DNA from: Patescibacteria group bacterium
GTDB taxonomy: Bacteria; Patescibacteriota; Microgenomatia; Levybacterales; UBA12049
Direction: 5' to 3'
Length of the DNA: 39,958 bases
Assembly (NCBI GenBank): GCA_038062115.1
Contig: JBBTXS010000028.1
Span: forward strand, 1 to 39,958
Shown here: positions 7,076 through 39,909 of the stretch, piece by piece
Layout of the letters: every line of letters starts with the position of its first letter
Numbering within the stretch: position 1 is the stretch's first letter
Translations under genes and position numbers: made by a program
The notes under the pieces: generated by a model
Seen by the model: the letters and a program-made list of their open reading frames with translations, nothing else
Told to the model about the DNA's origin: nothing
The model's database searches: none

Positions 7076-7148
7076 GCGCCCTTAGCTCAATGGACAGAGC
7101 GAGTGGCTTCGGACCACTAGGTTGCGGGTTCGACTCCTGCAGGGCGCG
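7076..7148 (+). tRNA. tRNA-Arg (anticodon TCG)
   Basis: Acceptor GCGCCCT/AGGGCGC, anticodon stem AGTGG/CCACT with loop CTTCGGA, T arm GCGGG-TTCGACT-CCTGC. Confidence 0.88.
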
Positions 7149-7149
7149 C

Positions 7150-20841: not shown

Positions 20842-21707
20842 GCTCGTTCTCTAATAAAAAATTCTTTTTCTTCTAGGTAAAAATTCTTCCTAAAAAGCGC
20901 AATAAAATATGATAAATATTTATTGTTTTGGGTAAATGTTATCATATAGCCAAGCCATTTTTTATATATTTCTTTTTTAATTTCTTGGCCTAAGCTAGCA
21001 ATATGAGGCTTTTGTAAAAACATAGTTACATATTCTTCTACATCTTTTCTAGATTTATTTTCAAATTTATACTCTTTGAAATAATACAATTCATACTTAT
21101 TATTTGTATTAAAAACATTCAGCCAGTCATTTTTATTGAAATATTTTATTTGAGCACCAATTATCCCACTCACTGCATCTAATACTTGCTCTGGTGGTTT
21201 CTTTCTGTAAAATAATTGGGTAGTTGCTAAAAATCCCCAGGGTTTTAGGACTCTGAAATATTCGCTTACAGCTTTTTTCTTGTTTTCCATAAAGGAAGTG
21301 GCTCCACCACACATCACTAAATCAAAATACCCTTGCTCAAAAGGAATATCATAAGCAGATCCAACTTTAAAAACCACCCTCTTCCTTACGTCTTCAGTAT
21401 CTTTATTCAATGTATAATTTGCTTCATTTACACAACTTTCAGAAATATCTATTCCATAAACTTTGGATTTAGTTATATGAGCAAATTCAAGAGAATTGAA
21501 TCCGGTATTTGAACCAACATCAAGAATTTTACAATTTTGTTCTACAAATGTATTATGAACGATCTCTCTTATGGAGCTCTTTCCACCAGGACAACGATTT
21601 GTTTCTTTTATGAAAGATATAAAGTCCGTATAAGACAAAGATTTGATGTATTCTTTGGTTATTTTATTCATATAACTGACCCTTGACATCATGATGAATT
21701 GAATCAA
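20838..21707 (-). CDS. Class I SAM-dependent methyltransferase
   Basis: Motif I ILDVGSNTGFNSLEFA, motif II YGIDISESCV, FDLVMCGGATSF. ATGA-type 4-bp overlaps with both neighbours. Confidence 0.8.
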   Translation of the reverse strand: MIQFIMMSRVSYMNKITKEYIKSLSYTDFISFIKETNRCPGGKSSIREIVHNTFVEQNCKILDVGSNTGFNSLEFAHITKSKVYGIDISESCVNEANYTLNKDTEDVRKRVVFKVGSAYDIPFEQGYFDLVMCGGATSFMENKKKAVSEYFRVLKPWGFLATTQLFYRKKPPEQVLDAVSGIIGAQIKYFNKNDWLNVFNTNNKYELYYFKEYKFENKSRKDVEEYVTMFLQKPHIASLGQEIKKEIYKKWLGYMITFTQNNKYLSYFIALFRKNFYLEEKEFFIRERA

Positions 21708-22744
21708 AACTCTGCATATATTTTTCTTTTTTTAGAATCAATTCTGACTTTTTTGCCGTAAGGCATTGGAACCTGAGGATCGCTATGTCCAAAATCCAAA
21801 TTTTGAACTACTGGTATGGACTTATTATATTTCCTGACTGTTGTTAGAATTGCGTCTCCCTGTTGTTTACGATATTTATCTTTTTGTTCCTTGCTGTTCT
21901 GCCTATCAAATTCCCAAGCTTTTGGTCTTCCCACTAATATACCTTTCACTCTTTCCAAAATACCTCTTTCTCCTAAAGATCTATAAACTCTATAAACATA
22001 ATTAGCAGTTGGTATTTCTTCTGATGTTTCGGTCATTAAAATAATATTTTCAAAATCTTCTAAAGATGGAATTTCAACACTATGTCTTAGGAGCTCATCT
22101 ATTGATTCTAAACAACCGCCCCAGGTGATTCCTTCAGTATTTTGATCAGCATCCCAAACCCAACCTTCGTTTGGTTCATAAGTTCTTTGTTTTTTTAGAT
22201 TCTCCGTATCACTCCAGTCTAAATCAATGTCGTTATATTCTTTGCTCGCTTCTAGTTCAAATTCGCCTTTTTCAAATAAAGCTAATTTCAAATATTTAAG
22301 GGTGTATTCATGTATTTTTCCTTGCTCTGCAAATTGCGTAAATAAAGCGCCGCCATAATATGATGGTATGCTATTCAACCAAAGAAAATTCATAAAGTGA
22401 GTATTATCACTGTAGCCAAAGTAGGGTTTTGGATTACTTTTAAATGGCTCGGCTGGCAAATTCTTAATGTAGGTTATTTGATCGTCTCCTCCAAGAGAAG
22501 ATATAACACCTTTAATCTCTTTATCTTCAAAAGCTGCAATTAAATCTTTAGCTCGTTCTTCTTTGGAAGCTCCAACCTTTTTAGTAGTCGGAAATTCTAC
22601 TGGTTCTAATTCAAAAATCTCTCGTAGTCGTTTCAATCCTAGCTCATAAACATGAGGCCATTTTCCTGGAGCAGCAAATGATGGCGACAGAATAGCAACT
22701 TTATCACCAGGTTTAATTTTATTCATCAAGAGAAATTGTCTCAT
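21704..22744 (-). CDS. S66 serine peptidase (LD-carboxypeptidase LdcA / microcin C7 immunity MccF family)
   Basis: PGDKVAILSPS N-terminus, nucleophile motif GYSDNTHF, acidic ETSEE, His motif DFGHSDPQVPMPYG (Ser-Glu-His triad intact). Likely start is ATG 22726 (MNKIKPGD). Confidence 0.8.
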   Translation of the reverse strand: MRQFLLMNKIKPGDKVAILSPSFAAPGKWPHVYELGLKRLREIFELEPVEFPTTKKVGASKEERAKDLIAAFEDKEIKGVISSLGGDDQITYIKNLPAEPFKSNPKPYFGYSDNTHFMNFLWLNSIPSYYGGALFTQFAEQGKIHEYTLKYLKLALFEKGEFELEASKEYNDIDLDWSDTENLKKQRTYEPNEGWVWDADQNTEGITWGGCLESIDELLRHSVEIPSLEDFENIILMTETSEEIPTANYVYRVYRSLGERGILERVKGILVGRPKAWEFDRQNSKEQKDKYRKQQGDAILTTVRKYNKSIPVVQNLDFGHSDPQVPMPYGKKVRIDSKKRKIYAEF

Positions 22745-22770
22745 GTCTTGTATTGCAATTTTACATCAAA

Positions 22771-23844
22771 ATGTACCAAAAACCAAATAATTGTTATAAT
22801 ACTAAAAACATGCCGAACCTAAATAAACACGACCTTGTTCTTTTTAAATCTAGTGAATTTCTAGGTTTTGAAAAATTTCTTGAAAAAAACTATCAGTTTA
22901 GAATAATTTCCACTGAGTATCCGCCGTATGTTTCGTTTACTTCCAGAAAAGCTATTATTCACACCGATAAGGGCACATTTTTCCTTAAAGAAAAACCTGA
23001 ATATTCTAGCGATAAACTTTCCTTAAATAAATCAGGTAGATTTCAAAGATATGCAAGTTTCAAGCTAGATGTTGTACCTAAAATTAGGCTTACAAAAAAA
23101 GATGAGTGCTTTGTTATGTGGAAAAGCAGGTTTTACTTTTTGACTGAGTATAAAAAAGGCAGAGTCTTTAATGGGTCTGATCAAGATGTTAACTCAATGT
23201 TAAAAGCTCTCAATAAATTGCAAAAAATTGGCAAAGAATTTACAAGTAAAAAAGACGTACCGCTTGATGTTCTAAAGCGGATTGAGTCATATGAAGTAGC
23301 CAAACTGACTCCTTTAATTAAAAAATATGCTAGATCAAAAAAAGAATCTTCAATTTATGGAAAAATAATTAAGTGTTTAGAAATGCTGAAAAAAGAATAT
23401 ATTTCTTTGCCCAAAAAGGAATACTTAATGAGCCATGGTGATTTTATTATTTTTAACATTATATTTAGAAATAACGAAGTCGTTGCAATAAACGATTTTG
23501 ATAATGCAAAAAAACTACCAAAATTACATGATTTAGCCGAATTTTTAGTTTCATCTACAATGTTCAACTATATTGGTTCACTAACAAATATGAAACTTCC
23601 AGTCGTTCTTGAGCCACAAAAAAGTAAATTTAAATTAATTATGAAGTCATATGTACGAGATTTTTCTTTGTCCAAAAAAGATGTTGTCTTACTCAGTACA
23701 ATAGCAGAAATTATCTGGCTATGGACATTATGTTTATCTGTCCTTAAGGGCGATTATAGAATTTCGGATTTAGCAAAAGTAGTGAGAAGAGTAGAGAAAA
23801 GAAGCTTATCTAACTTGATTAAAAACACTGCTGCTTATTTTTAG
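22771..23844 (+). CDS. APH/choline-kinase-fold phosphotransferase (paralog 1)
   Basis: Brenner motif SHGDFIIFN and metal-binding INDFDN; lysine motif FFLKEKPEYS. Paralogous to 27236..28366. The start is uncertain (TTG 22753, ATG 22771 or ATG 22810). Confidence 0.75.
   Translation: MYQKPNNCYNTKNMPNLNKHDLVLFKSSEFLGFEKFLEKNYQFRIISTEYPPYVSFTSRKAIIHTDKGTFFLKEKPEYSSDKLSLNKSGRFQRYASFKLDVVPKIRLTKKDECFVMWKSRFYFLTEYKKGRVFNGSDQDVNSMLKALNKLQKIGKEFTSKKDVPLDVLKRIESYEVAKLTPLIKKYARSKKESSIYGKIIKCLEMLKKEYISLPKKEYLMSHGDFIIFNIIFRNNEVVAINDFDNAKKLPKLHDLAEFLVSSTMFNYIGSLTNMKLPVVLEPQKSKFKLIMKSYVRDFSLSKKDVVLLSTIAEIIWLWTLCLSVLKGDYRISDLAKVVRRVEKRSLSNLIKNTAAYF
22792..22800 (+). promoter_or_regulatory. Candidate extended -10 promoter element in the divergent intergenic region
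   Basis: TGTTATAAT (TGnTATAAT) lies 9 nt upstream of ATG 22810 of the kinase ORF, between the divergent S66 and kinase genes. Confidence 0.3.
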
Positions 23845-23950
23845 ACATGACTTGCTTAAGTACAAATCAAAATTAAAGTGACCTTAAATTTTAGATAAAT
23901 ATGCAGCGCCTTGCTAAAGCACTATCTTTGGATTAAAATCATTGTTAAAT

Positions 23951-25630
23951 ATGACAATTCCTTTTTCCGAACTACTCCAAAAATATCTTTTATCCGTAGG
24001 AATAAATAAAATGTACGGAATTGTTGGCAGAGAAGAGAGTTCTTTGACGTTTAACACATTAGAAGATTTTGAATTTATTTTAACTAGACATGAAATGACA
24101 GCTGGTGTTATGGCCACTGCCATTTCAAGGTTCACAAGAAGCCCGCAGGTCTGTTTTGGAACGCTTGGACCAGGTATTACTAACTATATGACTGCTCTTG
24201 CTACAGCAACGCTTGATCGTTACCCATTGATTTTGATTGTAGCTCAATTAGAGACGCCATATATTATATATAATGACATGCATCAATGTGTTGACAATGT
24301 ATCTATAGCAAAACCTTTATCAAAATATGCATACGAGCTCAAAAGTCCCAATGAGCTTAAATCTGCTCTTGAGTCAGCATTGAAAGCTTCAATGACTTTT
24401 CCATTTGGGCCATCTGTGATATCAATTCCTATTGATATCTTGTCTTCTGATCTAGAGATTGATTCTGCAACAGCAACAAGCTTGAATAAGGATGTCATTC
24501 TCCCTTCAATATCTGAAGATTATGATATTAAAAATTTAGTAGAAGAGGCCGCTAAGATTATAAAATCGAGTAAAAACCCTTTAATAATAGCTGGTGATGC
24601 AATAGTTAAAACTGAGGGAACGATAAGTAAAGTTAAAAAATTCTCTGAAAATACAAACATTCCTGTAATTACAACGTATTCCGCAAAGGGAGTTATAAAT
24701 AGAAATTCACCATTAAATTATGGTGTTTTAAGTTCCTATATAGATTCAGTGGTCAAAGAAAATGTGAACGAAAAAATATTTAATAAAGCAGATACTCTTA
24801 TTTTTATTGGTTATGATTTATGCGAAAGACATCCATTTTTATGGCCTAGTAATAGTATTCCCAAGGTTTTGATAAATATAAATTCATATCATAATAATGT
24901 TCATAAGGCACTAAACCCGCACGTCAATATAATATCCCGCTTAGATAAAAGCATTGATTTACTAAAAGATTATTTAAAGGGTTATAAAAATAAAAAACTT
25001 ATCGAGATAAATAAGATCAATAATAAAATTAATAAATTACTTAAAGATAAAACTCACTACAAAGACGGAATAACTCATCCTCAAATTTTAAATTCTTTGA
25101 ATGATCATTTTAATGAGGATTATATTTTAGCTAATGACATAGGAATGCACAGGCATTTGTCTAGCATTTTCTTTAAAAATGATAAACCTGAATATTACGT
25201 GACTTCGGAAGGATTATCTTCATTTGGAACAGGTTTATCATTAGGAATGGGAGCTAAGATTGCAAACCCTAATAAGCCCGTTGTTGTGATTGCAGGTGAT
25301 GGTGGATTTCACTCCAATGACGGGGATATTGAAACAGTAGTTAGACTTGGTTTGAAAATTTTAATCGTGGTTTTAAACAGTAGCTCAAACGCATTAATAG
25401 AGAGATATCAATTAAAAGGAAAGTACAAAAATATGAATAAAAAAAATACTTCATTTGGCAAAGTTGATTTTGATTTATTGGCAAAGGCAAATGGCTGTCA
25501 GTCTGATAAAGCGCAAAACATTGAGGAATTTAATAAATTACTTAAAAAATATGATAATATTGACGGACCTTTTTTAATTGAAATACCCATTTATTATCCA
25601 CAACACTATGTAAATGAATATTCAAAATAG
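23951..25630 (+). CDS. Thiamine-diphosphate-dependent enzyme, acetolactate-synthase-like three-domain type
   Basis: N-domain GTLGPGITN; ThDP-binding motif GDGGFHSNDGDIETVVRLGLKILIVVLNSSSN (GDG...N). About 560 aa. Confidence 0.8.
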   Translation: MTIPFSELLQKYLLSVGINKMYGIVGREESSLTFNTLEDFEFILTRHEMTAGVMATAISRFTRSPQVCFGTLGPGITNYMTALATATLDRYPLILIVAQLETPYIIYNDMHQCVDNVSIAKPLSKYAYELKSPNELKSALESALKASMTFPFGPSVISIPIDILSSDLEIDSATATSLNKDVILPSISEDYDIKNLVEEAAKIIKSSKNPLIIAGDAIVKTEGTISKVKKFSENTNIPVITTYSAKGVINRNSPLNYGVLSSYIDSVVKENVNEKIFNKADTLIFIGYDLCERHPFLWPSNSIPKVLININSYHNNVHKALNPHVNIISRLDKSIDLLKDYLKGYKNKKLIEINKINNKINKLLKDKTHYKDGITHPQILNSLNDHFNEDYILANDIGMHRHLSSIFFKNDKPEYYVTSEGLSSFGTGLSLGMGAKIANPNKPVVVIAGDGGFHSNDGDIETVVRLGLKILIVVLNSSSNALIERYQLKGKYKNMNKKNTSFGKVDFDLLAKANGCQSDKAQNIEEFNKLLKKYDNIDGPFLIEIPIYYPQHYVNEYSK

Positions 25631-25726: not shown

Positions 25727-25858
25727 ATGGTAATTTCGTTAAAGTCAGTTAAAAATCAGGAAAAGGTAAATAATGTAAAAAGAGACATTGCGAAACTTGA
25801 CAAATTTTTAATTTTTTTGAATAAAATGGCAAAATTAAAGAAAAAAAAGAATTCATGA
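25727..25858 (+). CDS. Hypothetical 43-aa lysine-rich small ORF, stop overlapping the NDK-like start (ATGA)
   Basis: I translated it as MVISLKSVKNQEKVNNVKRDIAKLDKFLIFLNKMAKLKKKKNS; TGA 25856-25858 overlaps ATG 25855-25857. No homology evidence. Confidence 0.2.
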   Translation: MVISLKSVKNQEKVNNVKRDIAKLDKFLIFLNKMAKLKKKKNS

Positions 25859-26547
25859 GAAAACCAGAAATATTCCAGCAAATAGAAGCCCCACAAGCTT
25901 TTTCTACTCGAAGAAGAGCAAGTGAAGCTATACGTGGATTACAAGAGGGGTCGATAAATTTAGACCAACTAGAACAGATAAGATTAGTAAAAATTAAAGC
26001 ACTATTGGAGCATCCTGAGTTGCAAAATTTAATAGATGAAAATAAAATTACACTTGGAATTATTAAGCCTCATGTAAATGAAGGTAAAAATCTTCCAAAA
26101 GATGACGACGAAGCGGCTAAAGTATTGCTAAATGAAATAAGCGAAGAAAACGTAGTTTTTACTTTTTCTACACAACTAACTGGAAATCAAGTTGAAAGTT
26201 TTTATAGCGATGTAAAACAGAAATATTCTCAGATCACTACCAATGCACAGGGTCAAACAGTTTGGGATACTATTTATAATTTTGGACAATCAGGACCATT
26301 AACATTTCTTCTGATTTACAGAGAAGAGGGCAATGCTATTGAATGGTGGAGAAATAAGATGGGAAAGACAAGGCCAAACGAAGCAGATCCTGAAAGCATT
26401 AGGGGTAAATATGCTTTACAGGAAAAACTACCTAATAATTTAACTCATGGTAGCGATTCAGCTGAGTCTGTAAGAAAAGAAATTAAAGAATTAGGCAATA
26501 TTGTTGAGGCAATTTTAGAAACAAATGTTCCACATATAAATCAATGA
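25855..26547 (+). CDS. Divergent nucleoside-diphosphate kinase with about 60-aa N-terminal extension
   Basis: TLGIIKPHV (compare ..IKPD.V), SGPLTFL, ADPESIRGKYA and the active-site motif NLTHGSDSAESVRKEI (N..HGSDS.eSa.kEI). Confidence 0.7.
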   Translation: MRKPEIFQQIEAPQAFSTRRRASEAIRGLQEGSINLDQLEQIRLVKIKALLEHPELQNLIDENKITLGIIKPHVNEGKNLPKDDDEAAKVLLNEISEENVVFTFSTQLTGNQVESFYSDVKQKYSQITTNAQGQTVWDTIYNFGQSGPLTFLLIYREEGNAIEWWRNKMGKTRPNEADPESIRGKYALQEKLPNNLTHGSDSAESVRKEIKELGNIVEAILETNVPHINQ

Positions 26548-27235: not shown

Positions 27236-28366
27236 CTATAATATTGTTGGTATATTTTTTTCTACAAAGGCTTGGAAAGATAATGCTTCTAATACATCGC
27301 GATAACTAAAATCACCCCTAACAATTCCCAGAGACATAATTTTTGCCCATCGTATGTTCATTTCGCCAACTAACTCGGCTTTTTCTTTCGGAGACAAGGC
27401 TGGTGAATTTGCTGCATAGCCCTTGATAAAAGCTTTTGCTTTTTCTAGATTTAATGACGTTGTGATAGGCTTTCGCAAGGTTGAAGTAGTTCCTGCATAA
27501 CTAAGTCCATCGCAAAATGAGATTACAGCGCCTGCAAGATCTCTTATTCTAGGACGATAGTCAACATTATCAAAATCATTTACAGCAACAACAGTGCCGT
27601 TTTTATCATAAACTAAATTAAATGGCGCATAATCTGCATGATTTACAAGGTATGGCACATCCTGATCCATCTGTCCACTGTACTTATCAACTATATCTTT
27701 TAAAGCCAGGACTGCTTTTTGCTTCCATTCATCATCTTGCGCTCCTTTTAATTGGTCAGCCATGTTAATAAACTGTAAGGTATCTTCTCCCGCATATCTT
27801 TTACGGAGATCTGGAAAATCAAATTCTTTAGATAGAAGGTGTATCTTGCCAAGTGTAGCTCCTGCATTTGCAGTATCTTGTATACTACCATTAAATATTC
27901 TTCCTTCCTTAAATTCTGTAGTTAAAAAGTGTGTTTCTCCAATTTGGAGATATGGATTTCCAGATTTTGTATTAATAATTCTTGGGACAAAGTCTGTTCT
28001 ATGAGAAAGAAATTGCTGAAATCGCGCAGAAAGAGAAAGATTATATGGATTACAAGAATATTTGGGCTTTTCTTTTATAAAGTATTTGTGTTTTCCATCA
28101 TCTATAATAACTTTCCTACTTGTTGTCGAAAAAGCAGTTGGAAATTCTGAGCCAAAGTTACTGTCTATACCATATTCTTCGCTCATAATTTTTTTTAAAG
28201 AATCATTTACTCCTAATAGAAGAAGGTCTGAGGAGTTTAAATCTCTTCCATGTACAGCTGGTTTCTTCTCTATTTCTGATGTCTGATTTGGTGCAATAAT
28301 CTCGGCTCCAATTTTAGATTTACCAGGTGCTGGAAGACCTAGCAGTTTAGGAAAATGCTCATTCAT
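27236..28366 (-). CDS. APH/choline-kinase-fold phosphotransferase (paralog 2)
   Basis: NHADYAPFN and VNDFDN motifs. YFIKEKPKYS, FLTTEFKEGRIFNGS and STTSRKVII mirror FFLKEKPEYS, FLTEYKKGRVFNGS and FTSRKAII of paralog 1. Confidence 0.75.
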   Translation of the reverse strand: MNEHFPKLLGLPAPGKSKIGAEIIAPNQTSEIEKKPAVHGRDLNSSDLLLLGVNDSLKKIMSEEYGIDSNFGSEFPTAFSTTSRKVIIDDGKHKYFIKEKPKYSCNPYNLSLSARFQQFLSHRTDFVPRIINTKSGNPYLQIGETHFLTTEFKEGRIFNGSIQDTANAGATLGKIHLLSKEFDFPDLRKRYAGEDTLQFINMADQLKGAQDDEWKQKAVLALKDIVDKYSGQMDQDVPYLVNHADYAPFNLVYDKNGTVVAVNDFDNVDYRPRIRDLAGAVISFCDGLSYAGTTSTLRKPITTSLNLEKAKAFIKGYAANSPALSPKEKAELVGEMNIRWAKIMSLGIVRGDFSYRDVLEALSFQAFVEKNIPTIL

Positions 28367-29047: not shown

Positions 29048-29884
29048 ATGAAAAAACCTATAGGAAAACGTCTTGATGTAATCAAAGGGTTGCTTTCAGG
29101 AGAAATCAATATTTCTAAGGCAACAAATCTTTTATCTTGTTCACGAAGAAGTATTGAGAGATACAAAAAGGCATTTGTCCAAAAAGGAGAGGCTGGATTA
29201 AAAGATCATAGACATAGCAATTATCGAAAACTCTCCGAGAAACAAAAAGAAGATATTATTGCTTTAAAACAAAAGGATAGATGGCGTTCGGCGCGAAACA
29301 TTCGAGATGAGCTAAAACTTTCTCTAAGCGAACATCAGGTTCAAAGAATTTTAGTTGCTAAAGGATTAGGAAGGGAAAATTTAAAGAGAGTAAAAGCGAT
29401 TATCCGTTTTGAAGCAACAGCTCCCAATGATCTGTGGCAAACAGATATTATGGGAAAGATTGATTTTCCAAATATTAGTATCCTTTACCTTATCGCAACT
29501 CTTGATGACCATAGTAGATTTGTACCAGCAGGAAGATGGTTTAAAACTCAAGGAAAGATGAATGTGTTTCAAATCTGGTATGAATCTCTTTCTAAATGCG
29601 GACTTCCTGATAAGATGCTTCAAGATGAGGGATCACAATACAAAGCAAGAGCAAGGTTTGGTACAGCAGATTACGAGTGGTATGCAAAACAGGCAGGTAT
29701 CAAGCTCATCTGGGCAAACAGGGCGGAAACTAAAGGAAAAATAGAGAGATTCTGGAAGTTTGTACAGGGAGATTTTGTGCCATCCGTCATCAATGCGAAA
29801 ACCATAGAGGAGGTAAACGGCGCTTTTAAAATATGGCTTGCTAATACAATGGGTCTAGATAACTTTAGAACGGTTTTTCTCTAA
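29048..29884 (+). pseudogene. IS481/IS3-like DDE (rve) transposase, 3' end disrupted by IS1595 insertion
   Basis: Strong SD (AAAGGAGGTGA) before the ATG; HTH N-terminus; DDE residues in WQTDIMG, LQDEGSQY and KGKIERFW. The expected W..YN..RPH tail is replaced after KIWLANT, exactly at the left IR of the inserted element. Confidence 0.7.
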
Positions 29885-30590
29885 AGTCTTTCAGTAACTC
29901 TTTGTACATATTACCATTATTTATTCTAATATTCCACCGGTATTCGGATTCTTTTAAATGCAGTAAAAATTTAGTTCTGTGAATACCGTTAAATTTCAAT
30001 AATCTTCTTTTAGTATAACTCCAAAAAGATTCAATGCCATTGACATGATTTTTTCCTCTGGCAAATTCGTTTTCATGGTGATGGATACGGTAATGTTTGT
30101 ATCCGTTTAACACCAATCCGTCATAAGATTTCCAGCCATCAGTATAAATAGTTGTGTCTGCAAGAATTTTACCTTTAATAATAGGCATTAGTTCATGTCT
30201 AGAGCAGTTTGGGATGATCTGAGTATAATACTCTGCCTTTTCTTTTTAATAAACCCACTACAGGAGTTTTTCCTTTTGCTCCTCTTCCCCGTTTTCCTCT
30301 AACTCTTCTTGCTCCAAAGTAACTTTCGTCAATTTCCACCTCTTTGTCTAAAAGATTACTGTCAATTAAAAGTAATATTCTTTTTCTAAACAGAGCATAG
30401 AGTTTATTAATTGTAATCCTTGAAATTCCAGTGGCATCGCTTACAGCAAATGCTGTATAATCTTTACAGAATAACCTTAAAATCTGTCTAAATTTCTTTT
30501 CAGAAATATGGGAACGATTAAAATACTTATTTTTCATTGTCTAGACAATCTATTCTAACATATTGAGTTAGCTAAGCTTATCTAGACCCA
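29850..30590 (-). mobile_element. IS1595-family insertion sequence (741 bp) with frameshifted transposase
   Basis: Perfect 13-bp terminal inverted repeats: TGGGTCTAGATAA (29850-29862) and TTATCTAGACCCA (30578-30590). ORFs 30199..30537 and 29865..30188 (IYTDGWKSYDGL...HVNGIESFWSYTKRR). The downstream frame continues upstream as YYTQIIPNCSRHELMPII, so there is a 1-nt indel near GTATTATAC. Confidence 0.8.
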
Positions 30591-30702
30591 AACATAATAT
30601 ATTAGTCAATTAATTGCTAATAATTTAATTCAGGCGTATAATTTTGCTACAGAATTTATGGATGGCTTAGAATGGGATTTAGTGTAAAATGATAGCTTCA
30701 AA

Positions 30703-31323
30703 GTGGGCAACGATGATTTCTCTTCTTTAGAGATACATCCAACTCCTAGTAATGGGTTTTATTACTTCTTTTATCAAAAAGAAAATAGGTTAATAAAGCG
30801 ATTTGTGCTCCTCGAAAAAGACCGAGTTGACTATTTATGCACGGTAGTTCTTATTAAGAAAAATGATAAATTTTCTCCACGGCTAGCTCTTTCTATAAGA
30901 GATAAACGTAGAAAAATATTAGAGGAAAACTCTGAAAAACCTACAAAAATTAAGGCAAGTGTTAATCTGGACGATTGTTATGAAAATTTTTGGAGATTGG
31001 TTGCTTTTTTACAATCTCTTCGTGATAAAATAGAAATTCCGCAAGGCAGTTTTTCTTTGGTATCGGCAGAAGAAGGAGAAATTATCAAAGCAATTCAAGG
31101 AAGAGATGCCAAAAGTATAACAAGAATTATCAAAGAGTTATCTAAAATTGAAGGAGTTACTTTATCAGAAAGATATCGAGCAGATTCTCGATAGGAAAGG
31201 GAAGTTATCAGAATTCAAGACTAGCATTACAGTTAAAGCAAGCGATGAAAGTTGGTGGCAAGACTTTTTTGAAAATAATAAATGGATCTTCGGATATGGT
31301 TTAACTTTACAAATAAAAATATA
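30703..31323 (+). pseudogene. Shedu/DUF4263-like nuclease remnant (frameshifted, C-terminally truncated)
   Basis: ORF 30703..31194 stops, but a shift at the A-run in GAAAGAT continues as DIEQILDRKGKLSEFKTSITVKASDESWWQDFFENNKWIFGYGL. That resembles the E..WQ.FF..N.WIFG block preceding the DUF4263 nuclease core. The core itself is absent. Confidence 0.4.
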
Positions 31324-31437
31324 GAGTCTATAGATAAGGAATTTGCTCATCCGTTAAAGCAAAAGAGCTGAGTATATATTAAAATAGTCTTATATTGATT
31401 TATGCTTATCTCGACAAATCCCTGAATAAGTTAAAAT

Positions 31438-32565
31438 ACATTTGCGACATTTCAGATAGTGGCAAGTAGTACCGGAGTATCTACGAAAGCATACCCAATA
31501 TTTAGTAGAATCAAAGGCTGGAAGGAGGCGCTAAGTATGCTTTCCAGTCTAAGAGGGTACTCTTTATCTGAAGTTGCAAAGAAAAGAATGGAGATTATTA
31601 ACTTTTATGATGAGTTTGGAGAAGAGGCAACAATGAAAGCTTTTGGAGCAGACCGTAAGGTTATTAGTCGTTGGAGAAAGCGATTGGCAAAAAGTGGAGG
31701 AAGATTAGAATCTTTAATTCCTTACTCAACAAAACCTAAAACTGTAAGGAGAGTAAGCTATAGTCAAAAGATTGTTGATTTTATCAAACAATACAGAAAA
31801 GATCATCCAAGAACTGGTAAGGAGAAAATTAAAATAGAGCTTGATGAACATTGCGCAAATGTGGGAATCAAAACTGTATCGGAGTCAACAATTGGCAATA
31901 TCATCAAAAGGCATAAATTCTTTTTCCAAAAGTCTGGCAGAATCTATCATAACCCAAACTCTAAATGGGCTAGAAATGAGGCTAAAAAGAAAAAGAGACT
32001 TAGGGTTAAACATCCGCCAAAACTCGATAATTTTGGCCATATACAATCAGATGCTGTACAAAGAATAACTGATGGGATAAAAGATTATTTCATTTCTGCT
32101 ATTGATGCCAAGATGAAATTTATCTTAACCTTAAATTACAAAAGTTTAACTAGCCGTAACAATAAAGACTTTTATCAAAGATTTAAAAGTGTTTATCCAG
32201 GAAGAATTAAAGACTGGCAGTCAGATAATGGTTCGGAGAATCTTGGGGAGTTTGACCAACAGTTAACAGAGGATCAAATTCCCCATCTTTTCTCATATCC
32301 TAGATGTCCTAAGATTAATACATACATTGAAAGATACAACAGAACTGTTCAAGAGGAATTCATTGACAACAACTTAGACATTATTCATGACAAAATACTT
32401 TTTAATCAAAAACTGGTCGATTACCTAATTTGGTACAATTCTAAAAGGCCACATAAATCATTGGGTCTTAAAAGCCCGTTACAATATCTTCTTGAGAAAG
32501 GAGGTATGTCGCAAATGTCCTTGACTTATACAATCCCTGTACAATTTACGAATGATATGGTATAG
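31438..32565 (+). mobile_element. IS481/IS3-like insertion sequence with apparently intact DDE transposase (CDS 31459..32565)
   Basis: 13-bp inverted repeat ACATTTGCGACAT (31438-31450) / ATGTCGCAAATGT (32506-32518). The 368-aa ORF has HIQSDAV, DWQSDNGSE, YIERYNRTVQEEF and WYNSKRPHKSLG (rve core). The ORF reads through the right IR by 47 nt. Confidence 0.7.
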
Positions 32566-32596
32566 TGGAAACCGTAAATAATAGTGGAATAAGCTT

Positions 32597-33829
32597 ATGT
32601 CTTTCTCAAGCCATGAAAGGGTACAACCACAACCTATGAGTAGTTTACTAAAAGCAAAGTTAGAAGTACCCTTGGAAAATCCAAATCTTCTAATGCCGCT
32701 CAAGTTCGAGGTGTCTTCTCCTGAAAAGATTGAAAGACTTTTGTCTGTCAACGACCTCACCTTGCCAACCGAAGAGAGACAAGAAAGAAATATAGTTGGT
32801 CGAGTTTACGACCAAGTGATTAGCAAATTAAGAGAACATAATTTCCCCGATATACGCATTATAAGAGGTGACCCTATTGTAAAAGCAAGAGACAATTTTG
32901 ACAGGCTGTTGTTTACTCCTGGGAATCCAGGAAGGTCATCTACATATACAAGGTATACTGACGAAGATCATGTTCTTAGGACTCATACATCAGCACTAAT
33001 CCCGTCTACGTTTTCTAAATTAGAAAAAGACATAGATCGTTCAACTCTCGTGTTTCCTGGCTTAGTTTATAGGCGCGACGTTATTGACCCTAGACACTTA
33101 GATGTTTTTCATCAGATAGACGTATGGACACTTCAAAAAAATAGTGAATATGGACGGACAACCAAAGAAGATTTATTAGAATTAGCAAAAACAGTTTTTG
33201 AAGCGGCATGTCCAGATGCAAAGATGATTGTTTATGAGGCTAAACATCCATATACAGTTGATGGTATTGAAGTTTACGCTGGAATTGATGGCAAAGAAAT
33301 AGAAGTTCTTGAGGCAGGCCTTACCCATCCAGAGGTGTTAAGAAATGCCGGTATAGATCCAGAGCAGTACTCTGGGTTAGCGTTAGGTATGGGGATAGAA
33401 CGGCTAATTATGGCTAGGAAAAACTTGCCAGATATAAGATTGATACGATCTGTTGATCCACGCGTTATTAGACAAATGACAAATATGGAAAAGTTTATAA
33501 ACGTATCTAATCAGCCAGCAATGTCTCGAGATATGTCATATTGCGTTAGTAAAAACGACTCAGAAGAAGACATTTGCGAAGCAATCAGAAGTGTCTTTGG
33601 AGATAATTCTGACTTATTAGAGCAAGTGGATATCCTAGAAAGAACTCCTTTCGATAAGTTGACCCCAATTGCAAGAAAGAGGCTTGGGGCAACAATAGAC
33701 AAAGATAATGTTTTAGTAAGAATTATCTTACGGCATCCCGACAAGACTTTAACTAAAAAAGAGGCTGCTGACTTATATTCTATGACATATCCAAAGCTTC
33801 ATCAGGGTACTACAAAAGGATATGGATAA
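32597..33829 (+). CDS. Monomeric (mitochondrial-type) phenylalanyl-tRNA synthetase: class IIc catalytic core plus C-terminal FDX-ACB anticodon-binding domain
   Basis: NFDRLLFTPGNPGRS, LRTHTSA, motif 2 GLVYRRDVIDPRHLDVFHQID and motif 3 GLALGMGIERLIMARKNLPDIRLI. Then QPAMSRDMSYCV...LEQVDILERT...VRIILRHPDKTLTKKEA, which parallels the FDX-ACB domain of PheT and mitochondrial PheRS. 410 aa. Confidence 0.75.
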   Translation: MSFSSHERVQPQPMSSLLKAKLEVPLENPNLLMPLKFEVSSPEKIERLLSVNDLTLPTEERQERNIVGRVYDQVISKLREHNFPDIRIIRGDPIVKARDNFDRLLFTPGNPGRSSTYTRYTDEDHVLRTHTSALIPSTFSKLEKDIDRSTLVFPGLVYRRDVIDPRHLDVFHQIDVWTLQKNSEYGRTTKEDLLELAKTVFEAACPDAKMIVYEAKHPYTVDGIEVYAGIDGKEIEVLEAGLTHPEVLRNAGIDPEQYSGLALGMGIERLIMARKNLPDIRLIRSVDPRVIRQMTNMEKFINVSNQPAMSRDMSYCVSKNDSEEDICEAIRSVFGDNSDLLEQVDILERTPFDKLTPIARKRLGATIDKDNVLVRIILRHPDKTLTKKEAADLYSMTYPKLHQGTTKGYG

Positions 33830-34444
33830 TGGATAAATTCATAACAATAGTTTCTCCATGTCCGGTTGGACAAAGGTATCATTGTTGGTGGGCGTTTTGT
33901 AACAAATTACGTAAAAATGTCATAAAATCATACCTCTTTATATTTCTAGTCTGATTTTAAAGATATTCTTCTAGAAGTATCGTTGATGAAGTTAGAAATT
34001 TTGAATTCCCAACACTTTTCGCTTCAAATTCTTCTGCAATCTTTTCGTAAAAGGTAGAAAAAAGTTTATTGGTAAGATTTTGATTTTCAGTAGATTTGTT
34101 AAAAGAAGAAACAAAACACCCCTTGAATTATCTGGTGTCAGTATTCATAAATATTACAATTTCATTAAGCTTCTTAGGAAATCACTTAATCTAAATTTTG
34201 AGAGGGAAAAGTCGTAAATTTGTTACCAGCGCCGAATTTATAGATAGGGCTCTCCAGGGCCGAAAAATCGCGCGTGCAAAAAATACATGCGAAGATTTAG
34301 CAATCTTCGCCAAAACTGTCGGCTCGAACTTCTTTTTAAACAATCGGCGGCTTGTCTCAGAATATAATCAGGGCTTTGCAGAGGTCTTCGCGTATCTTAC
34401 TGCGCAGAGCCAGTCCTCTGCCAGCCCCACAAACTCCCTTTCTG

Positions 34445-34517
34445 CGCCCCTGGCGGGAATCGAACCCACAACCTACTCTTTAGAAGAGAGTTGCTCTATC
34501 CGTTAAGCTACAGGGGC
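34445..34517 (-). tRNA. tRNA-Arg (anticodon TCT)
   Basis: Acceptor GCCCCTG/CAGGGGC, D arm GCTT-AACGGATA-GAGC, anticodon stem ACTCT/AGAGT with loop CTTCTAA, T arm GTGGG-TTCGATT-CCCGC. Confidence 0.88.
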
Positions 34518-35623: not shown

Positions 35624-36032
35624 GAAATAAAACAGTGTCTGTCTTCCTTCGCCACCTGTGTCTTCGCCACCTGAAAGGCGCAACAGCCTCGCTACCTGAA
35701 TACTTAATGGACTAATCTAACACTCAAGTTATAAATTAGTGATCTTCTAGAACCAAATGCTTTATCCGTTCAAGCTTTTTAGCATAATCTATATCTATCA
35801 ATAACAAAATTTTTATACTCGTCAATCGACGAAAACTGTTTAAGTACTATATCTAGGTTAACTAAAGAGGATAGGTTGCTTTGCCACGCCTCTACTGTAT
35901 ATGTGATAAATTTCTCCATTTACTAAAGAGGTGCGTCTATATGACATGCTTTTAATGTAGAAGAAAATAAATTAATTGTCAATAGGTAGCGATCCTGTTT
36001 CACCTTTCAGGTGAAAGATAACATTTTGCGTG

Positions 36033-36104
<72 letters not shown>

Positions 36105-36113
36105 AAAATTGTA

Positions 36114-36146
36114 CGGGGCGTTTCTACCGGTGAGATACTCCCGCGA
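36114..36146 (-). pseudogene. 5' half of a tRNA (Gly-like) remnant just upstream of tRNA-Gly
   Basis: The minus strand reads GCGGGAG-TA-TCTC-ACCGGTA-GAAA-C-GCCCC: an acceptor, a degenerate D arm and a 5' anticodon stem. It then breaks off 9 nt before the intact tRNA-Gly. Confidence 0.4.
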
Positions 36147-36178
36147 GCTCATCCATTTTATCAAATTTGATTTACTTT

Positions 36179-36241
36179 GTCATTCTGAATTTATTTCAGG
36201 ATTTCGCTTCGCTCGAGATGCTGAAACTAGTTCAGCATGAC
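36179..36241. repeat. 63-bp palindromic miniature element (GTCATTCTGAA...TTCAGCATGAC)
   Basis: Two hairpins, ATTCTGAA-ttta-TTTCAGGAT and ATGCTGAA-ctag-TTCAGCAT, flank a TTCGCTTCGCTCG core. It sits 6 nt beyond the ancestral ahcY stop. Confidence 0.75.
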
Positions 36242-36247
36242 AATTAT

Positions 36248-36668
36248 TTACTTCGTCCCTTCTGTCCATGAAGAAAGATATTTCTCCTGCTCTTTCGTGA
36301 GTTTGTCTATAGAAATTCCGAGGATTGTAATCCAAAACTGTATTTAAATGCTTATAATAAGTCTTACTGTCTTCGCCTTTTATTGCAAAAACTGAAATGT
36401 CGTAATGTCTCACAAGAGAAGCTGCAACCATATCTTGTGTAGAAAGAGGATTTGAAGCACAAGCTACAACTTTTGCTCCTCCAGACTTGAGGGTCAAAAG
36501 TAAATTTGCAGTCTCGCTTGTTATATGTAGGCAACAGCCAATCGTTAGTCCTTTTAGAGGTCTTTCTTTTACAAATCTGTCTTCAATAGAACGAAGAACA
36601 GGCATTTGTTGGTATGCCCATTCTATTTTTAATTTGCCTTGTGGAGCAAGGGATAAATCTTTTAACAT
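36248..36668 (-). pseudogene. ahcY: S-adenosyl-L-homocysteine hydrolase with large internal deletion
   Basis: The N-terminal roughly 115 aa are intact (MLKDLSLAPQGKLKIEWAYQQMPVL...PLKGLTIGCCLHITSETANL...NPLSTQD). After LDYNP the frame degenerates. Another frame then reads the AdoHcyase C-terminus, LGISIDKLTKEQEKYLSSWTEGTK-stop (stop at 36248-36250). The NAD domain is missing. Confidence 0.7.
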
Positions 36669-37428
36669 CAAAACCACGATCAAGTCCTGCCAAAAACCCT
36701 GCTCTATATGCATCGCCAGCGCCAGTTGGATCTACCACTTTTTTTAGTTTTGCTGATTTTATCTTGTAAACCAGTCCTTTGCTTTCTATTTTTGATCCTT
36801 TCTCCCCAAGCGTTGTAATGATAATTTTGCCCTTGAACAATTTTCCCCAATCTCTAATACGGCTTTTTATCATACTTATTTCATAGTCATTTCCAACAAT
36901 ATATTTGGCGTGACTAACCCCAAATTTTAAATCATTATTATTTACTTGAGTCAAAATAAAACCCGGATCAAACATATAAGGGATTGCTAAATCAACGCAT
37001 TGCTTAACAAAAGACATAGAGCCTTTTGCGCCAGATGGGCCAATAAGAACAAGATCTTTTTTTGAAGCTATTTTTTTAAGTCTTAATTCTGGAATTCTTT
37101 CTGCTGCTCCATAAAAATACCCCCAAATCTGATTGTCTTTTTTATCTGTCATGGCAAAACCAGTGGCAGTATAATTAGTTTTGTCTACTAGAACATGGTC
37201 TGTAGAAATATCTAATCTTTTAAATGCTCTTTTGTATTCTCCAAAATCCTTTCCGGCAACAGAAAATAATATGTGAGGTATTTTAAGTAAGCCCAATGAA
37301 TAGGACACGTTACCTGCGGTTCCCCCACGCCTTCTTGCAAATTTGTTTACAATGAATGATAAATTGATGTTGTGGGTTTGATTGGGGAGGATGTAGTCGT
37401 AGGCAATTGTACCGGTGACGATAATCAT
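36583..37428 (-). CDS. PfkB-family carbohydrate/nucleoside kinase (adenosine-kinase-like), aberrant C-terminus
   Basis: MIIVTGTIAYDYI start (ATG 37426-37428), GGTAGNVSY, PfkB signature DPTGAGDAYRAGFLAGL. The last roughly 30 codons overlap the ahcY start in another frame and lack the usual helical tail. Confidence 0.7.
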   Translation of the reverse strand: MIIVTGTIAYDYILPNQTHNINLSFIVNKFARRRGGTAGNVSYSLGLLKIPHILFSVAGKDFGEYKRAFKRLDISTDHVLVDKTNYTATGFAMTDKKDNQIWGYFYGAAERIPELRLKKIASKKDLVLIGPSGAKGSMSFVKQCVDLAIPYMFDPGFILTQVNNNDLKFGVSHAKYIVGNDYEISMIKSRIRDWGKLFKGKIIITTLGEKGSKIESKGLVYKIKSAKLKKVVDPTGAGDAYRAGFLAGLDRGFDVKRFIPCSTRQIKNRMGIPTNACSSFY

Positions 37429-37435
37429 TCCTAAG

Positions 37436-37508
37436 TGCCGAAGCGGTGAATCGAACACCGATAACCGCTTCTTCAGAGCGGCGCCTTGACCACATTGGCA
37501 ACTTCGGC
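37436..37508 (-). tRNA. tRNA-Phe (anticodon GAA), 3-bp D stem and 4-nt variable loop
   Basis: Acceptor GCCGAAG/CTTCGGC, discriminator A, D arm GCCA-ATGTGGTCA-AGGC, anticodon stem CCGCT/AGCGG with loop CTGAAGA, variable TTAT, T arm CGGTG-TTCGATT-CACCG. Confidence 0.8.
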
Positions 37509-37579
37509 AGATTAAACTTCAAACCAATTATAAAGGAATTTATAGATATTGGCAATATTTCATTATGATATACTAATTT

Positions 37580-38215
37580 ATGAACATGAAGGGAGGCTGC
37601 GTTCTTCTTGGAGGTTGGTCAAGAGACTCTGAAACATATCATAAAATTATTGATACTTCCTCACCCCAAAACCATATTTATACCATTCTCCATACTTCTC
37701 TTATTCCAGATATAAGAATTTTACAAGAGCTAAAAACAAAAAATCTTACCTCTGTAGTGCTCATTGGACACTCGTTGGGAGACGCACTTGCCATTTCCTT
37801 TGCAGCTAACTATCCTGAATGTGTTAAAAAACTTATCTTGGTTGATTCTGAGGGCATACCTGACAAAAGAAATTTTTCTACTATTGTTTTTAATTGGCTT
37901 AAAGACTGTATTTTCATTCATGGAAAAGCAAAAGCCAAAGAAAACGTTAATGCACTATTTCTAATCATGCAAAACTTTCCATACTATTTTGCTGTAGCTC
38001 GTTTTGCCAATAACGTCGATGTTCGTAAAGACGCACAAAAAATTAAAGTACCAACTCTTATTTTATGGGGAGAAAAGGACAAAGTAGTACCTATAGAAAG
38101 CGCAAAAGAACTTAATCGATTGATAAAAGGTTCAAAGTTGGTGGTTTTGGATGGCATGGATCATGATTGGCTTATCCATTATCCACGAGGACTCTGGAGC
38201 AATATAGAAAAGTAA
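37580..38215 (+). CDS. Alpha/beta-fold hydrolase
   Basis: Nucleophile elbow GHSLGD, late acid and His (GEKDKVVP, GMDHDW). 211 aa. Confidence 0.75.
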   Translation: MNMKGGCVLLGGWSRDSETYHKIIDTSSPQNHIYTILHTSLIPDIRILQELKTKNLTSVVLIGHSLGDALAISFAANYPECVKKLILVDSEGIPDKRNFSTIVFNWLKDCIFIHGKAKAKENVNALFLIMQNFPYYFAVARFANNVDVRKDAQKIKVPTLILWGEKDKVVPIESAKELNRLIKGSKLVVLDGMDHDWLIHYPRGLWSNIEK

Positions 38216-38231
38216 AATCCGCGTAAGCTAG

Positions 38232-38304
38232 TGGGCACATCAGGACTCGAACCTGAAACCTCTTCGATGTAAACGAAGCGCTCCACCAATTGAGCTATGC
38301 GCCC
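38232..38304 (-). tRNA. tRNA-Val (anticodon TAC)
   Basis: Acceptor GGGCGCA/TGTGCCC, anticodon stem CTTCG/CGAAG with loop TTTACAT, T arm TTCAG-GTTCGAG-TCCTGA region. Confidence 0.88.
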
Positions 38305-38321
38305 TCAAAACCCTTTTTATG

Positions 38322-38404
38322 TGGGTCGGAGAGGAGTTGAACCTCCACCCCTTGCGGGACATGCACCTCAAGCATGCGCGTATACCAGGTTCCGCCACCG
38401 ACCC
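38322..38404 (-). tRNA. tRNA-Leu (anticodon GAG), long variable arm
   Basis: Acceptor GGGTCGG/CCGACCC, anticodon stem CATGC/GCATG with loop TTGAGGT, variable arm CCCGCAAGGGG. Confidence 0.85.
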
Positions 38405-38407
38405 AAG

Positions 38408-38489
38408 TGCCGAGAGCGGGACTCGAACCCACACCTCTTGCGAGACACGGCCCTGAACCGTGCGCGTCTGCCAGTTTCGCCACCTCGGC
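38408..38489 (-). tRNA. tRNA-Leu (anticodon CAG), long variable arm
   Basis: Acceptor GCCGAGG/CTCGGC, anticodon stem CACGG/CCGTG with loop TTCAGGG, variable arm CTCGCAAGAG. Confidence 0.85.
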
Positions 38490-38564
38490 GTAGCCTCATT
38501 CTGCATTCTACCAAAACCAGTAAAGATTGACAAGCTTAACAAAATATGTCAACATTAAATATTC

Positions 38565-39140
38565 ATGAAAAAGATAATCTTATCTGCCTCCTTCTTTATC
38601 ATGACTCCATTTCTGCTTTTTGTTACCATCATATACTATTTATATCTGTCTTATAACCAAACAAAACACTTTAGACCATTTAATAACTCTAAACAGTTGG
38701 TAGCGTTTGCTGCCTTACCATCTCTAGAAAATGTGGTCATCGACAAAATTGAAGAAAAAGATGCAAATGCCGAAATTGTTAGGCAATTCTTTGCGAGGTA
38801 CAACTCTCCTCTTGAGCCTTATGCCCAAGACATTGTAGATGCAGCTAATGCTTACAATATTGATTTTCGTCTCGTTCCAGCAATTGCAATGCAAGAATCT
38901 AATCTTTGCAAAAAGGCACGAATTGGTTCATATAACTGCTGGGGTTTTGGCATATATGGAAAAAAGGCTACAAGATTTGAAAATTACAAAGAAGCAATTT
39001 ACACAGTTACAAAAACCCTATCACAACAGTATAAAAATAAAGGCTTAGAAACACCTGAGGAAATTATGAAAAAATACACTCCTTCTAGCAATGGACGTTG
39101 GGCTTATAGCGTTAATTTCTTCATGAATCACCTTAAATAA
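38565..39140 (+). CDS. Membrane-anchored lysozyme-like (glucosaminidase/transglycosylase superfamily) protein, paralog 1
   Basis: N-terminal TM helix; YNIDFRLVPAIAMQESNLCKK...NCWGFGIYG (catalytic-Glu context A.A.QES...G.G). Confidence 0.55.
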   Translation: MKKIILSASFFIMTPFLLFVTIIYYLYLSYNQTKHFRPFNNSKQLVAFAALPSLENVVIDKIEEKDANAEIVRQFFARYNSPLEPYAQDIVDAANAYNIDFRLVPAIAMQESNLCKKARIGSYNCWGFGIYGKKATRFENYKEAIYTVTKTLSQQYKNKGLETPEEIMKKYTPSSNGRWAYSVNFFMNHLK

Positions 39141-39237
39141 ACCTATAGTAACATACTTGACAAACCTATAGTTGAATGGTATAATCCTCGCAGATCCTAA
39201 GGTATGCCTTTCCAAATGTATACGTTAGGATTTTTTA

Positions 39238-39798
39238 ATGGGAAAAATTTTAGTTTCTTTGCTTATTATATTCGAAATTCTAGCAATTTCGAATCTTAAT
39301 ATCCAAAAAACTTATGCGCGGCAAGTATCTGCATCTGCAAATCTACAGCCGAGTGTATCTTATGGAAAACTTGTTGATAGCCGTGTGAAGGTCTTAAAAA
39401 ACTTCTTAGAAAAATATAATGCACCTTTTGTGCCTTTTGCCGGCGAATTTATTAAGAGTGCCGACGTCTACAACCTTGATTGGAAGCTGGTTGCTGCAAT
39501 ATCGGGCGTTGAATCAACATTTGGTAAATTTATTCCTTACGACTCTTTTAATGCATGGGGATGGGGAGTTTATGGTAATAATGTAATTTACTTTTCTTCT
39601 TGGACAGAAGGCATAGAAACAGTTTCTAAAGGACTCCGCGAGAATTACCTCGATAAATGGGGAGCAAAAAACATACATCAAATAGGTAAAATATATGCTG
39701 CTTCCCCAACTTGGGCTTCAAAAGTAGAATACTTTATGGAAAAAATAACTGAATTCGAAAATCAAAATCTTGCATACAATCTTCCTATTTCTTTGTAG
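39238..39798 (+). CDS. Secreted lysozyme-like protein, paralog 2
   Basis: Signal-like N-terminus; YNLDWKLVAAISGVESTFGK...NAWGWGVYG, colinear with 38565..39140. Confidence 0.55.
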   Translation: MGKILVSLLIIFEILAISNLNIQKTYARQVSASANLQPSVSYGKLVDSRVKVLKNFLEKYNAPFVPFAGEFIKSADVYNLDWKLVAAISGVESTFGKFIPYDSFNAWGWGVYGNNVIYFSSWTEGIETVSKGLRENYLDKWGAKNIHQIGKIYAASPTWASKVEYFMEKITEFENQNLAYNLPISL

Positions 39799-39823
39799 AT
39801 TATGTATAATAGTTTCGCCGCTT

Positions 39824-39909
39824 GCGGACGTGGCGAAATGGTAGACGCGATAGGTTTAGGACCTATTGACCGTAAGGTCTTGGGGGTTCGAGTCCCTTCG
39901 TCCGCACCA
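39824..39909 (+). tRNA. tRNA-Leu (anticodon TAG) with encoded CCA
   Basis: Acceptor GCGGACG/CGTCCGC, discriminator A followed by CCA, anticodon stem ATAGG/CCTAT with loop TTTAGGA, variable arm GACC-GTAA-GGTC. Confidence 0.88.

Follow-up and report, generated by a model that had tools for sequence, protein, structure and literature searches.

A single-chain PheS-like ligase of the SrmL family as a candidate phenylalanyl-tRNA synthetase in Patescibacteria

Introduction

Can the single-chain PheS-like ligase encoded on contig JBBTXS010000028.1 of a Patescibacteria group bacterium serve as the phenylalanyl-tRNA synthetase (PheRS) of its cell, or is it an additional enzyme? The gene lies at 32597-33829. 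The window, meaning the whole stretch of 39,958 nucleotides that was analysed, is essentially one entire contig of 39.5 kb, which comes from a groundwater metagenome (Hainich H51, 0.1 µm). A model that had seen only the DNA letters and a list of reading frames (hereafter the sequence-only reading) had called the product a monomeric, mitochondrial-type PheRS, and had considered both a sole PheRS and an extra copy. A 2010 review describes the mitochondrial PheRS as the sole monomeric class II synthetase known and regards it as specific to eukaryotes, where it replaced the bacterial heterotetramer (PMC3275996). Our literature search found no paper on SrmL, on a bacterial monomeric PheRS or on PheRS in Patescibacteria. 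The single-copy-gene table of Anantharaman 2016 lists only 'PheRS alpha' for bacteria and cannot settle whether pheT is present.

We favour, at about even confidence, the view that the gene and its clade (termed T1) encode a working single-chain PheRS, which displaced a second single-chain type (termed FP) in its lineage. The product is a class IIc aminoacyl-tRNA ligase of the SrmL family, a single chain whose catalytic apparatus is intact, with a PheS-type core joined to a mitochondrial-PheRS-like anticodon-binding domain and with neither a beta subunit nor an editing domain. In its Paceibacteria/Nomurabacteria-related lineage, the enzyme would most likely activate phenylalanine and charge tRNA-Phe. 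T1 would probably be the cell's PheRS, having taken over the slot of FP, which sister Parcubacteria keep directly upstream of gyrB.

Results

Architecture of the ligase

The gene and its product comprise the following features.

32597..33829, plus strand: open reading frame (ORF) of the single-chain PheS-like ligase (SrmL family, clade T1), ATG start, 410 aa, stop codon included
32636..33829, plus strand: probable true coding sequence from Met14, 397 aa; the equivalent Met is the start in homologues
32771..33478, plus strand: class IIc catalytic core, residues 59-294 (Pfam PF01409; alignments to PheS and mitochondrial PheRS)
33506..33790, plus strand: C-terminal FDX-ACB-type (anticodon-binding-like) domain, residues 304-398 (PF03147, alignment and fold match)

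The reading frame was found as the sequence-only reading had described it, a single 410-aa ORF with an ATG start on the plus strand. In the alignment of relatives, homologues begin at the equivalent of Met14 (MTSLxKAK...). Therefore, the true start is probably at 32636 and not at 32597. The class IIc catalytic motifs named in that reading were also present. The Pfam scan placed tRNA-synt_2d (PF01409) on residues 59-294 with an E-value of 8.6e-37, and the core contains LRTHTS, PGLVYRRD/FHQID (motif 2), HPYT and GLALGMGIERL (motif 3).

The proposed C-terminal FDX-ACB domain was examined by three approaches. The Pfam match to PF03147 (residues 304-398, E=4e-6) reached 27.6 bits and stayed under the gathering score of 31.1; on this point the proposal fell short. 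It held in the alignment, where the domain follows the anticodon-binding domain of human mitochondrial PheRS residue by residue, and in the fold comparison. For the latter, an AlphaFold2 model of the 397-aa form (Met14 start) was built on 67 sequences and had a pLDDT of 95 and a pTM of 0.91. Its best match in the PDB was human mitochondrial PheRS (3CMQ), with TM scores of 0.75/0.73 over about 405 columns, i.e. over the full length. Bacterial PheS chains in the PDB matched the core of the model only. Because of the alignment and the full-length fold match, we take the predicted FDX-ACB-type domain as confirmed despite the sub-threshold Pfam score. It contains an SrmL-specific insertion of about 12 residues (FDKLTPIARKRLGA...), which is common to all SrmL clades including T1.

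The organellar monomeric architecture was thus seen correctly: the protein is one chain with core and FDX-ACB-type domain, and the nearest solved structure is a mitochondrial PheRS. Like the mitochondrial enzymes (FARS2; PheRS-M; 3CMQ), it has no editing domain and no beta subunit. In contrast to them, T1 is of bacterial origin, is only 23-24% identical and carries HPYT in place of FPFT, so that the FPF aromatic pair recognising the Phe ring is not kept. Tyr at the second position of this pair is also found in human cytosolic PheRS. The core is homologous to bacterial PheS (TIGR00468; PDB 3PCO, 6P8T) with E-values of about 1e-26 to 1e-27, and the residues binding ATP and the amino-acid backbone are conserved between the two. 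Unlike bacterial PheS, T1 lacks the N-terminal coiled coil, has no PheT partner nearby and brings its own anticodon-binding domain.

Family membership

The only curated model passed by the window protein was NCBIfam NF051887, 'PheS-related mystery ligase SrmL', with 367.3 bits against a cutoff of 300 and 343 of 349 model positions covered. NF051887 is a curated equivalog model without an assigned function. The protein failed the mitochondrial PheRS model TIGR00469 (132.5 bits, cutoff 258.35) and the bacterial PheS model TIGR00468 (102 bits, cutoff 237.45). It failed the PylRS and SepRS models as well (20.9 and 10.8 bits, cutoffs 178 and 381). T1b, the paralogue T2 and plasmid members likewise pass NF051887. 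In a neighbour-joining tree, a single SrmL clade took in T1, T2 and a Saccharospirillum protein. The FP and the mitochondrial-like sequences were placed in clades of their own, and canonical PheS lay outside. The label 'mitochondrial-type PheRS' was therefore dropped; the phylogeny with mitochondrial and PheS sequences, which had been suggested along with it, sets T1 apart from both. By family models, the gene is a member of the curated, functionally uncharacterised SrmL family and neither a canonical PheS nor a mitochondrial-type PheRS.

A homologue search over 1.84 billion representative proteins returned 3339 matches at E-values up to 0.001. Ten proteins sampled from the best 150 matches all scored best on the SrmL model, three of them above the cutoff. 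Most of 76 full-length representatives showed SrmL motifs, and about a dozen had mitochondrial-type or FP-type motifs. The close relatives (70-98% identity) were all Patescibacteria, namely Nomurabacteria, Paceibacterota, Minisyncoccia, Jorgensenbacteria and WWE3. T1 shares with the rest of SrmL the motifs YTRY, HQxD(V/I)W and HPYT, a Glu at the first Gly of the GxG strand and the C-terminal-domain insertion. It differs from the rest in being a separate Patescibacteria-specific branch (34-40% identical to plasmid and proteobacterial members), in keeping the PheRS-like Phe171 and Pro111 and in bearing an N-terminal extension. Furthermore, T1 stands in housekeeping synteny, whereas other members are accessory.

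Lineages of single-chain enzymes and the gyrB slot

For the genomic context, 113 related loci (1.32 Mb, flanks up to 10 kb, here numbered with an L) were fetched and scanned with E. coli PheS and PheT. Three single-chain lineages were found in Parcubacteria: T1, which is the clade of the window, its paralogue T2, and FP. They show that the fused architecture of the mitochondrial PheRS is present in several abundant Parcubacteria lineages; the searches gave thousands of matches. T2 has about 371 aa, is 41% identical to T1 and is a full SrmL member.

FP is a single chain of 380 aa in which the PheRS motifs DHPAR/DTYY, FPYT and GWAFG are preserved. With 241-247 bits, it falls narrowly short of the cutoff of 258 for mitochondrial PheRS, and its C-terminal domain gives 75-90 bits on the PheT model. 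FP is highly abundant in Wolfe-, Pace-, Yanofsky- and Liptonbacteria. Examples are L114:10001-11143, L126:10001-11215, L127:10001-11137, L128:10001-11140, L097:14255-15403 and L110:1593-2738, as well as P0303 and P0482. FP resembles T1 in architecture, phylum and genomic slot upstream of gyrB. It is only 30-36% identical to T1 and forms a separate clade, and in L126 and L127, unlike in T1 loci, a stand-alone tRNA_bind (PF01588) protein is encoded ahead of it. As a bacterial counterpart of the mitochondrial PheRS, FP is a stronger candidate than the window gene.

The gyrB slot connects the two lineages. FP adjoins gyrB in five of six FP loci (L114, L126, L127, L128, L097). In L114 and L126-L128, FP is the immediate upstream neighbour of gyrB and reads in its direction; in L097, the two genes diverge and a single ORF separates them. 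Further upstream of FP, L126 and L127 encode a UvrD/PD-(D/E)XK helicase. Of 72 non-redundant T1 loci, 13 include gyrB within the flanking sequence fetched; its usual place is immediately after T1, and thrS follows in eight of these 13. A homologous helicase lies upstream of T1 in several loci (L004, L005, L009, L015, L051). By GyrB, the T1 hosts are one group (at least 61% identical), and FP hosts are at most 58% identical to them. This pattern reads as gene displacement in place. As displacement in place usually involves functional equivalents, T1 would, by this analogy, be equivalent to FP.

The divergence of T1 tracks that of GyrB across loci, with identities for T1 versus GyrB of, for example, 90% versus 82%, 73% versus 70% and 56% versus 70%. 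This indicates that T1 was inherited vertically under housekeeping-level constraint and is not mobile. Recent horizontal spread or extreme constraint had been considered for the 70-87% identity over many metagenome-assembled genomes, and was rejected since GyrB is equally similar in these organisms.

Co-occurrence with other PheRS genes

Neither pheS, pheT nor FP was found in 849 kb of non-redundant flanks of the 72 T1 loci. In the scan of the 113 loci, pheS-pheT and FP were detected on T2 contigs only and never on T1 contigs. T2 is linked within 10 kb to pheS-pheT (two loci), to FP (two loci) or to T1 (six loci), and never to two of these simultaneously. This distribution is supportive only, and T1 genomes may hold no other PheRS. 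The 'longest contig' values of T1 and FP matches (two FP queries), compared in order to find both genes on one contig, did not overlap among the best 120 of thousands of matches. A comparison of contigs of the source groundwater runs with an FP-bearing locus, meant to link genes by depth, met far more related organisms than it could resolve. Between a sole PheRS and an extra copy, the synteny of T1 favours the former, and the behaviour of other SrmL members favours the latter.

If T1 is the sole PheRS, a whole bacterial lineage reads Phe codons without a beta subunit and without editing of Tyr or meta-Tyr. The uncharacterised SrmL family would gain its first functional anchor, and the origin of the architecture of the mitochondrial enzyme would become testable against bacterial relatives. 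If T1 is not the sole PheRS, SrmL is a widespread paralogue of aminoacyl-tRNA synthetases with an unknown chemistry, present also on resistance plasmids.

Active-site residues

T1 keeps the His and Ser of LRTHTS, the Arg of motif 2, the Phe-His-Gln of FHQ and the Arg of motif 3. In the alignment, the residues binding ATP and the amino-acid backbone are thus retained. In E. coli PheRS, two residues, Thr251 and Ala294, set the depth of the pocket (PMC3275996); their equivalents are unchanged in T1. The Phe of FHQ (Phe171) and Pro111, both PheRS-like, are kept by T1 only among the SrmL clades. The Asp-x-x-aromatic of the RD(I/M)S(F/Y) element of the C-terminal domain is kept as well. We considered that HPYT replacing FPFT might mean a substrate other than Phe. 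This argument was rejected because human cytosolic PheRS carries NPYTEPS, i.e. xPYT is present in a bona fide PheRS. These residues would be compatible with Phe as the substrate, and tRNA-Phe would be the acceptor.

Evidence that weighs against a sole PheRS

Several observations count against T1 as the working PheRS of its lineage. T1 nests inside the SrmL clade and has every SrmL-wide departure from PheRS-conserved residues. At positions at least 85% conserved in PheRS, these departures include H110N, D117Y, F217H, S223G, G239E, F263L and W284R, among others. In total, 14 PheRS-conserved positions are altered in T1, T2 and other SrmL members, with the same replacement residue at most of them. 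Invariant glycines are said to floor the Phe pocket (PMC3275996). Gly239 corresponds to Gly282 of T. thermophilus in our own mapping from the GxGMVHP strand, and G239E would accordingly replace one of these glycines. The SrmL-wide changes (G239E, F217H, D117Y, H110N, S223G) could mean a different substrate.

The genomic distribution adds further points of this kind. T2 shares contigs with canonical pheS-pheT pairs, located on the Patescibacteria-like contigs L101 and L106, or with FP (L097, L110). Core SrmL members (515-524 bits) are found on plasmids of cultured Glutamicibacter nicotianae and Azotobacter chroococcum, and Saccharospirillum mangrovi has another in its 3.7-Mb chromosome. These cultured hosts would be expected to have a chromosomal pheST. 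The arrangement of T1 is also odd for a housekeeping aminoacyl-tRNA synthetase, with 16 of the 72 T1 loci linked to a conserved gene cluster around a pyridoxal phosphate (PLP)-dependent decarboxylase-like gene. In several of them, the decarboxylase gene is followed after 79-93 bp by T1, and both read in one direction. Finally, the empty flanks of T1 are weak evidence, since a randomly placed PheRS gene would be missed with a probability of about 0.35, assuming genomes of about 0.8 Mb.

A specialised second ligase

Among the other explanations, a specialised second ligase survives best, although we consider it rather unlikely. T1 would then work beside a true PheRS and use another, more polar amino acid or another acceptor, and it may do so together with T2 and the linked decarboxylase/oxidoreductase/aminotransferase cluster. 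Membership in the SrmL equivalog model and clade agrees with this, and NCBI curators chose the name 'mystery ligase' and not PheRS. The pocket-near changes F217H, G239E, D117Y and S223G and the C-terminal insertion are common to T1, T2 and members outside Patescibacteria, which points the same way. No change affects the residues that size the Phe pocket at its para end, however, and xPYT is used by a genuine PheRS. The co-occurrence of T2 with pheS-pheT and with FP suggests a second enzyme, and T1 is adjacent to T2 in six loci and cluster-linked in the 16 noted above. Against this, FP is absent from the conserved slot upstream of gyrB precisely where T1 sits, and no PheRS gene of another type was found on any T1 contig stretch examined. 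No dedicated tRNA gene or carrier protein consistently adjoins T1, and plasmid SrmL moves without partner genes, a point in favour of universal substrates.

Besides the PLP-dependent decarboxylase-like protein, which has 537 aa, the cluster encodes a GFO/IDH/MocA oxidoreductase, an aminotransferase of class IV or class I/II and two further proteins, one of 322 aa that is unknown and one of 351 aa that faintly matches GTP-cyclohydrolase-II. Its linkage spans T1 subclades of 56-87% identity. It was located at L001:4737-9930 and also in L007, L008, L014, L035-L038, L046, L067 and L075. None of the cluster genes was found in the window. The cluster could be aromatic amino-acid handling beside a PheRS, or it could provide a special substrate for the ligase. 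A far-reaching version is that the linked cluster makes a non-standard amino acid, which T1 and T2 attach to a tRNA or to some other acceptor. Patescibacteria would then hide a natural coding variant or tRNA-dependent pathway comparable to PylS/pylBCD or SepRS/SepCysS; we regard this as quite improbable. A pylT-like dedicated tRNA neighbouring T1 was not conserved in 26 related loci, and no T-box or other leader RNA was detected upstream of SrmL genes at Rfam gathering thresholds.

A backup or inhibitor-insensitive copy

The sequence-only reading had also mentioned a resistant target. T1 would in this case be a backup or inhibitor-insensitive PheRS, charging tRNA-Phe with Phe beside a standard PheRS and protecting the cell from a natural inhibitor of PheRS or from a toxic analogue of Phe. 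We judge this improbable for T1. The plasmid SrmL genes speak for it. On the Glutamicibacter plasmid pGnB68 (L123:7980-9098), the gene lies beside the cmx chloramphenicol-efflux gene, and on the Azotobacter plasmid (L124:7974-9086) between IS630, IS3 and HNH genes. A fragment on a C. diphtheriae plasmid (L125:6001-6627) lies between erm(X) and tet(65). Because core SrmL members are such lone plasmid genes beside cmx, insertion sequence (IS) elements or erm(X)/tet(65), one idea by analogy is that SrmL might protect against some inhibitor. The window gene itself follows directly on an IS in a transposase-rich stretch, but this adjacency is confined to the window contig and its near-identical copies. 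In Patescibacteria, T1 is inherited vertically at GyrB-like rates in conserved housekeeping synteny and is not mobile-like. Its G+C equals that of the surroundings, and a second PheRS is missing from the flanks of the 72 T1 loci.

The remaining probability goes to something other than these three readings.

Surroundings of the gene in the window

For T1 as the PheRS of its lineage, the surroundings in the window offer a candidate substrate. The neighbouring features are as follows.

31423..32532, plus strand: IS481-family insertion sequence directly 5' of the ligase gene (transposase ORF 31459-32565 and inverted repeats)
32538..32566, plus strand: sigma-70-like promoter match, TGTACA-17-TATAGT with TG, between the IS end and the start codon; consensus match only
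34444..34517, minus strand: tRNA-Arg(TCT), downstream of the ligase gene; adjacency not conserved
37435..37508, minus strand: tRNA-Phe(GAA), candidate substrate if the enzyme is a PheRS; not adjacent to the ligase gene

The IS that had been placed immediately upstream, at 31438-32518, was verified by the IS481 transposase and the repeat itself. The imperfect inverted repeat of 27-28 nt (31423-31450 / 32506-32532) has a perfect 13-nt core (31438-31450 / 32506-32518). Its alignment score was 29, compared with 16.8 +/- 2.6 (maximum 26) in shuffles; a default repeat finder did not detect it. The ATG of the ligase lies 65-79 nt past the IS end. The earlier statement that the G+C resembles that of core genes agrees with a value of 0.36 for the gene, the same as its neighbourhood. 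The tRNA-Arg reported after the gene is present, but its position has no wider counterpart, as no tRNA gene consistently adjoins T1 in the 26 related loci. We regard the neighbouring tRNA-Arg and the IS as incidental, with no relation to the function of the ligase. Neither pheS nor pheT was found in the window.

The transposase-rich stretch extends over 29048-32565. It contains two IS481-family transposase ORFs that differ from each other (29048-29884 and 31459-32565) and, on the minus strand at 29865-30537, two DDE fragments of the IS1595 type.

T2 loci and further observations

T2 was located at L001:3543-4655, L101:430-1545 and L106:10001-11116 and also in L088 and L107-L109. It often adjoins one or more radical SAM/SPASM (SAM, S-adenosylmethionine) genes. 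Elsewhere its neighbour is a class II LysRS-like gene, after which come genes for a dCTP deaminase-like protein, a methyltransferase and an S66 peptidase. On a 400-kb metagenome contig (L085:10001-12305), two SrmL-like genes stand in tandem, with 50% and 31% identity to the window protein, which points to further duplication within the SrmL family.

On the minus strand, the stretch 19732-22744 of the window encodes three proteins. One is a paralogue (368 aa) of the AsnRS/asparagine synthetase A core that lacks an anticodon-binding domain and stays under every cutoff; after it come a class I methyltransferase and an S66 LD-carboxypeptidase/MccF-family protein. All three families recur beside T2 in L090, L091, L097 and L111.

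Two APH-family phosphotransferase ORFs lie at 22753-23844 (plus strand) and 27236-28366 (minus strand). The DNA between them codes for a thiamine-diphosphate enzyme (23942-25630) and holds an NDK-like ORF (25855-26547) that is extended at the N-terminus. The region 36032-39909 holds seven tRNA genes in 4 kb, for Gly, Phe, Val, three times Leu and another Leu on the plus strand. A split-looking adenosylhomocysteinase/PfkB region is found at 36180-37458. The listed 841-aa ORF at 7090-9615 begins within tRNA-Arg(TCG) (7076-7149), so that its real start lies further downstream. Its product has a faint match to a family involved in cell-surface glycopolymer formation.

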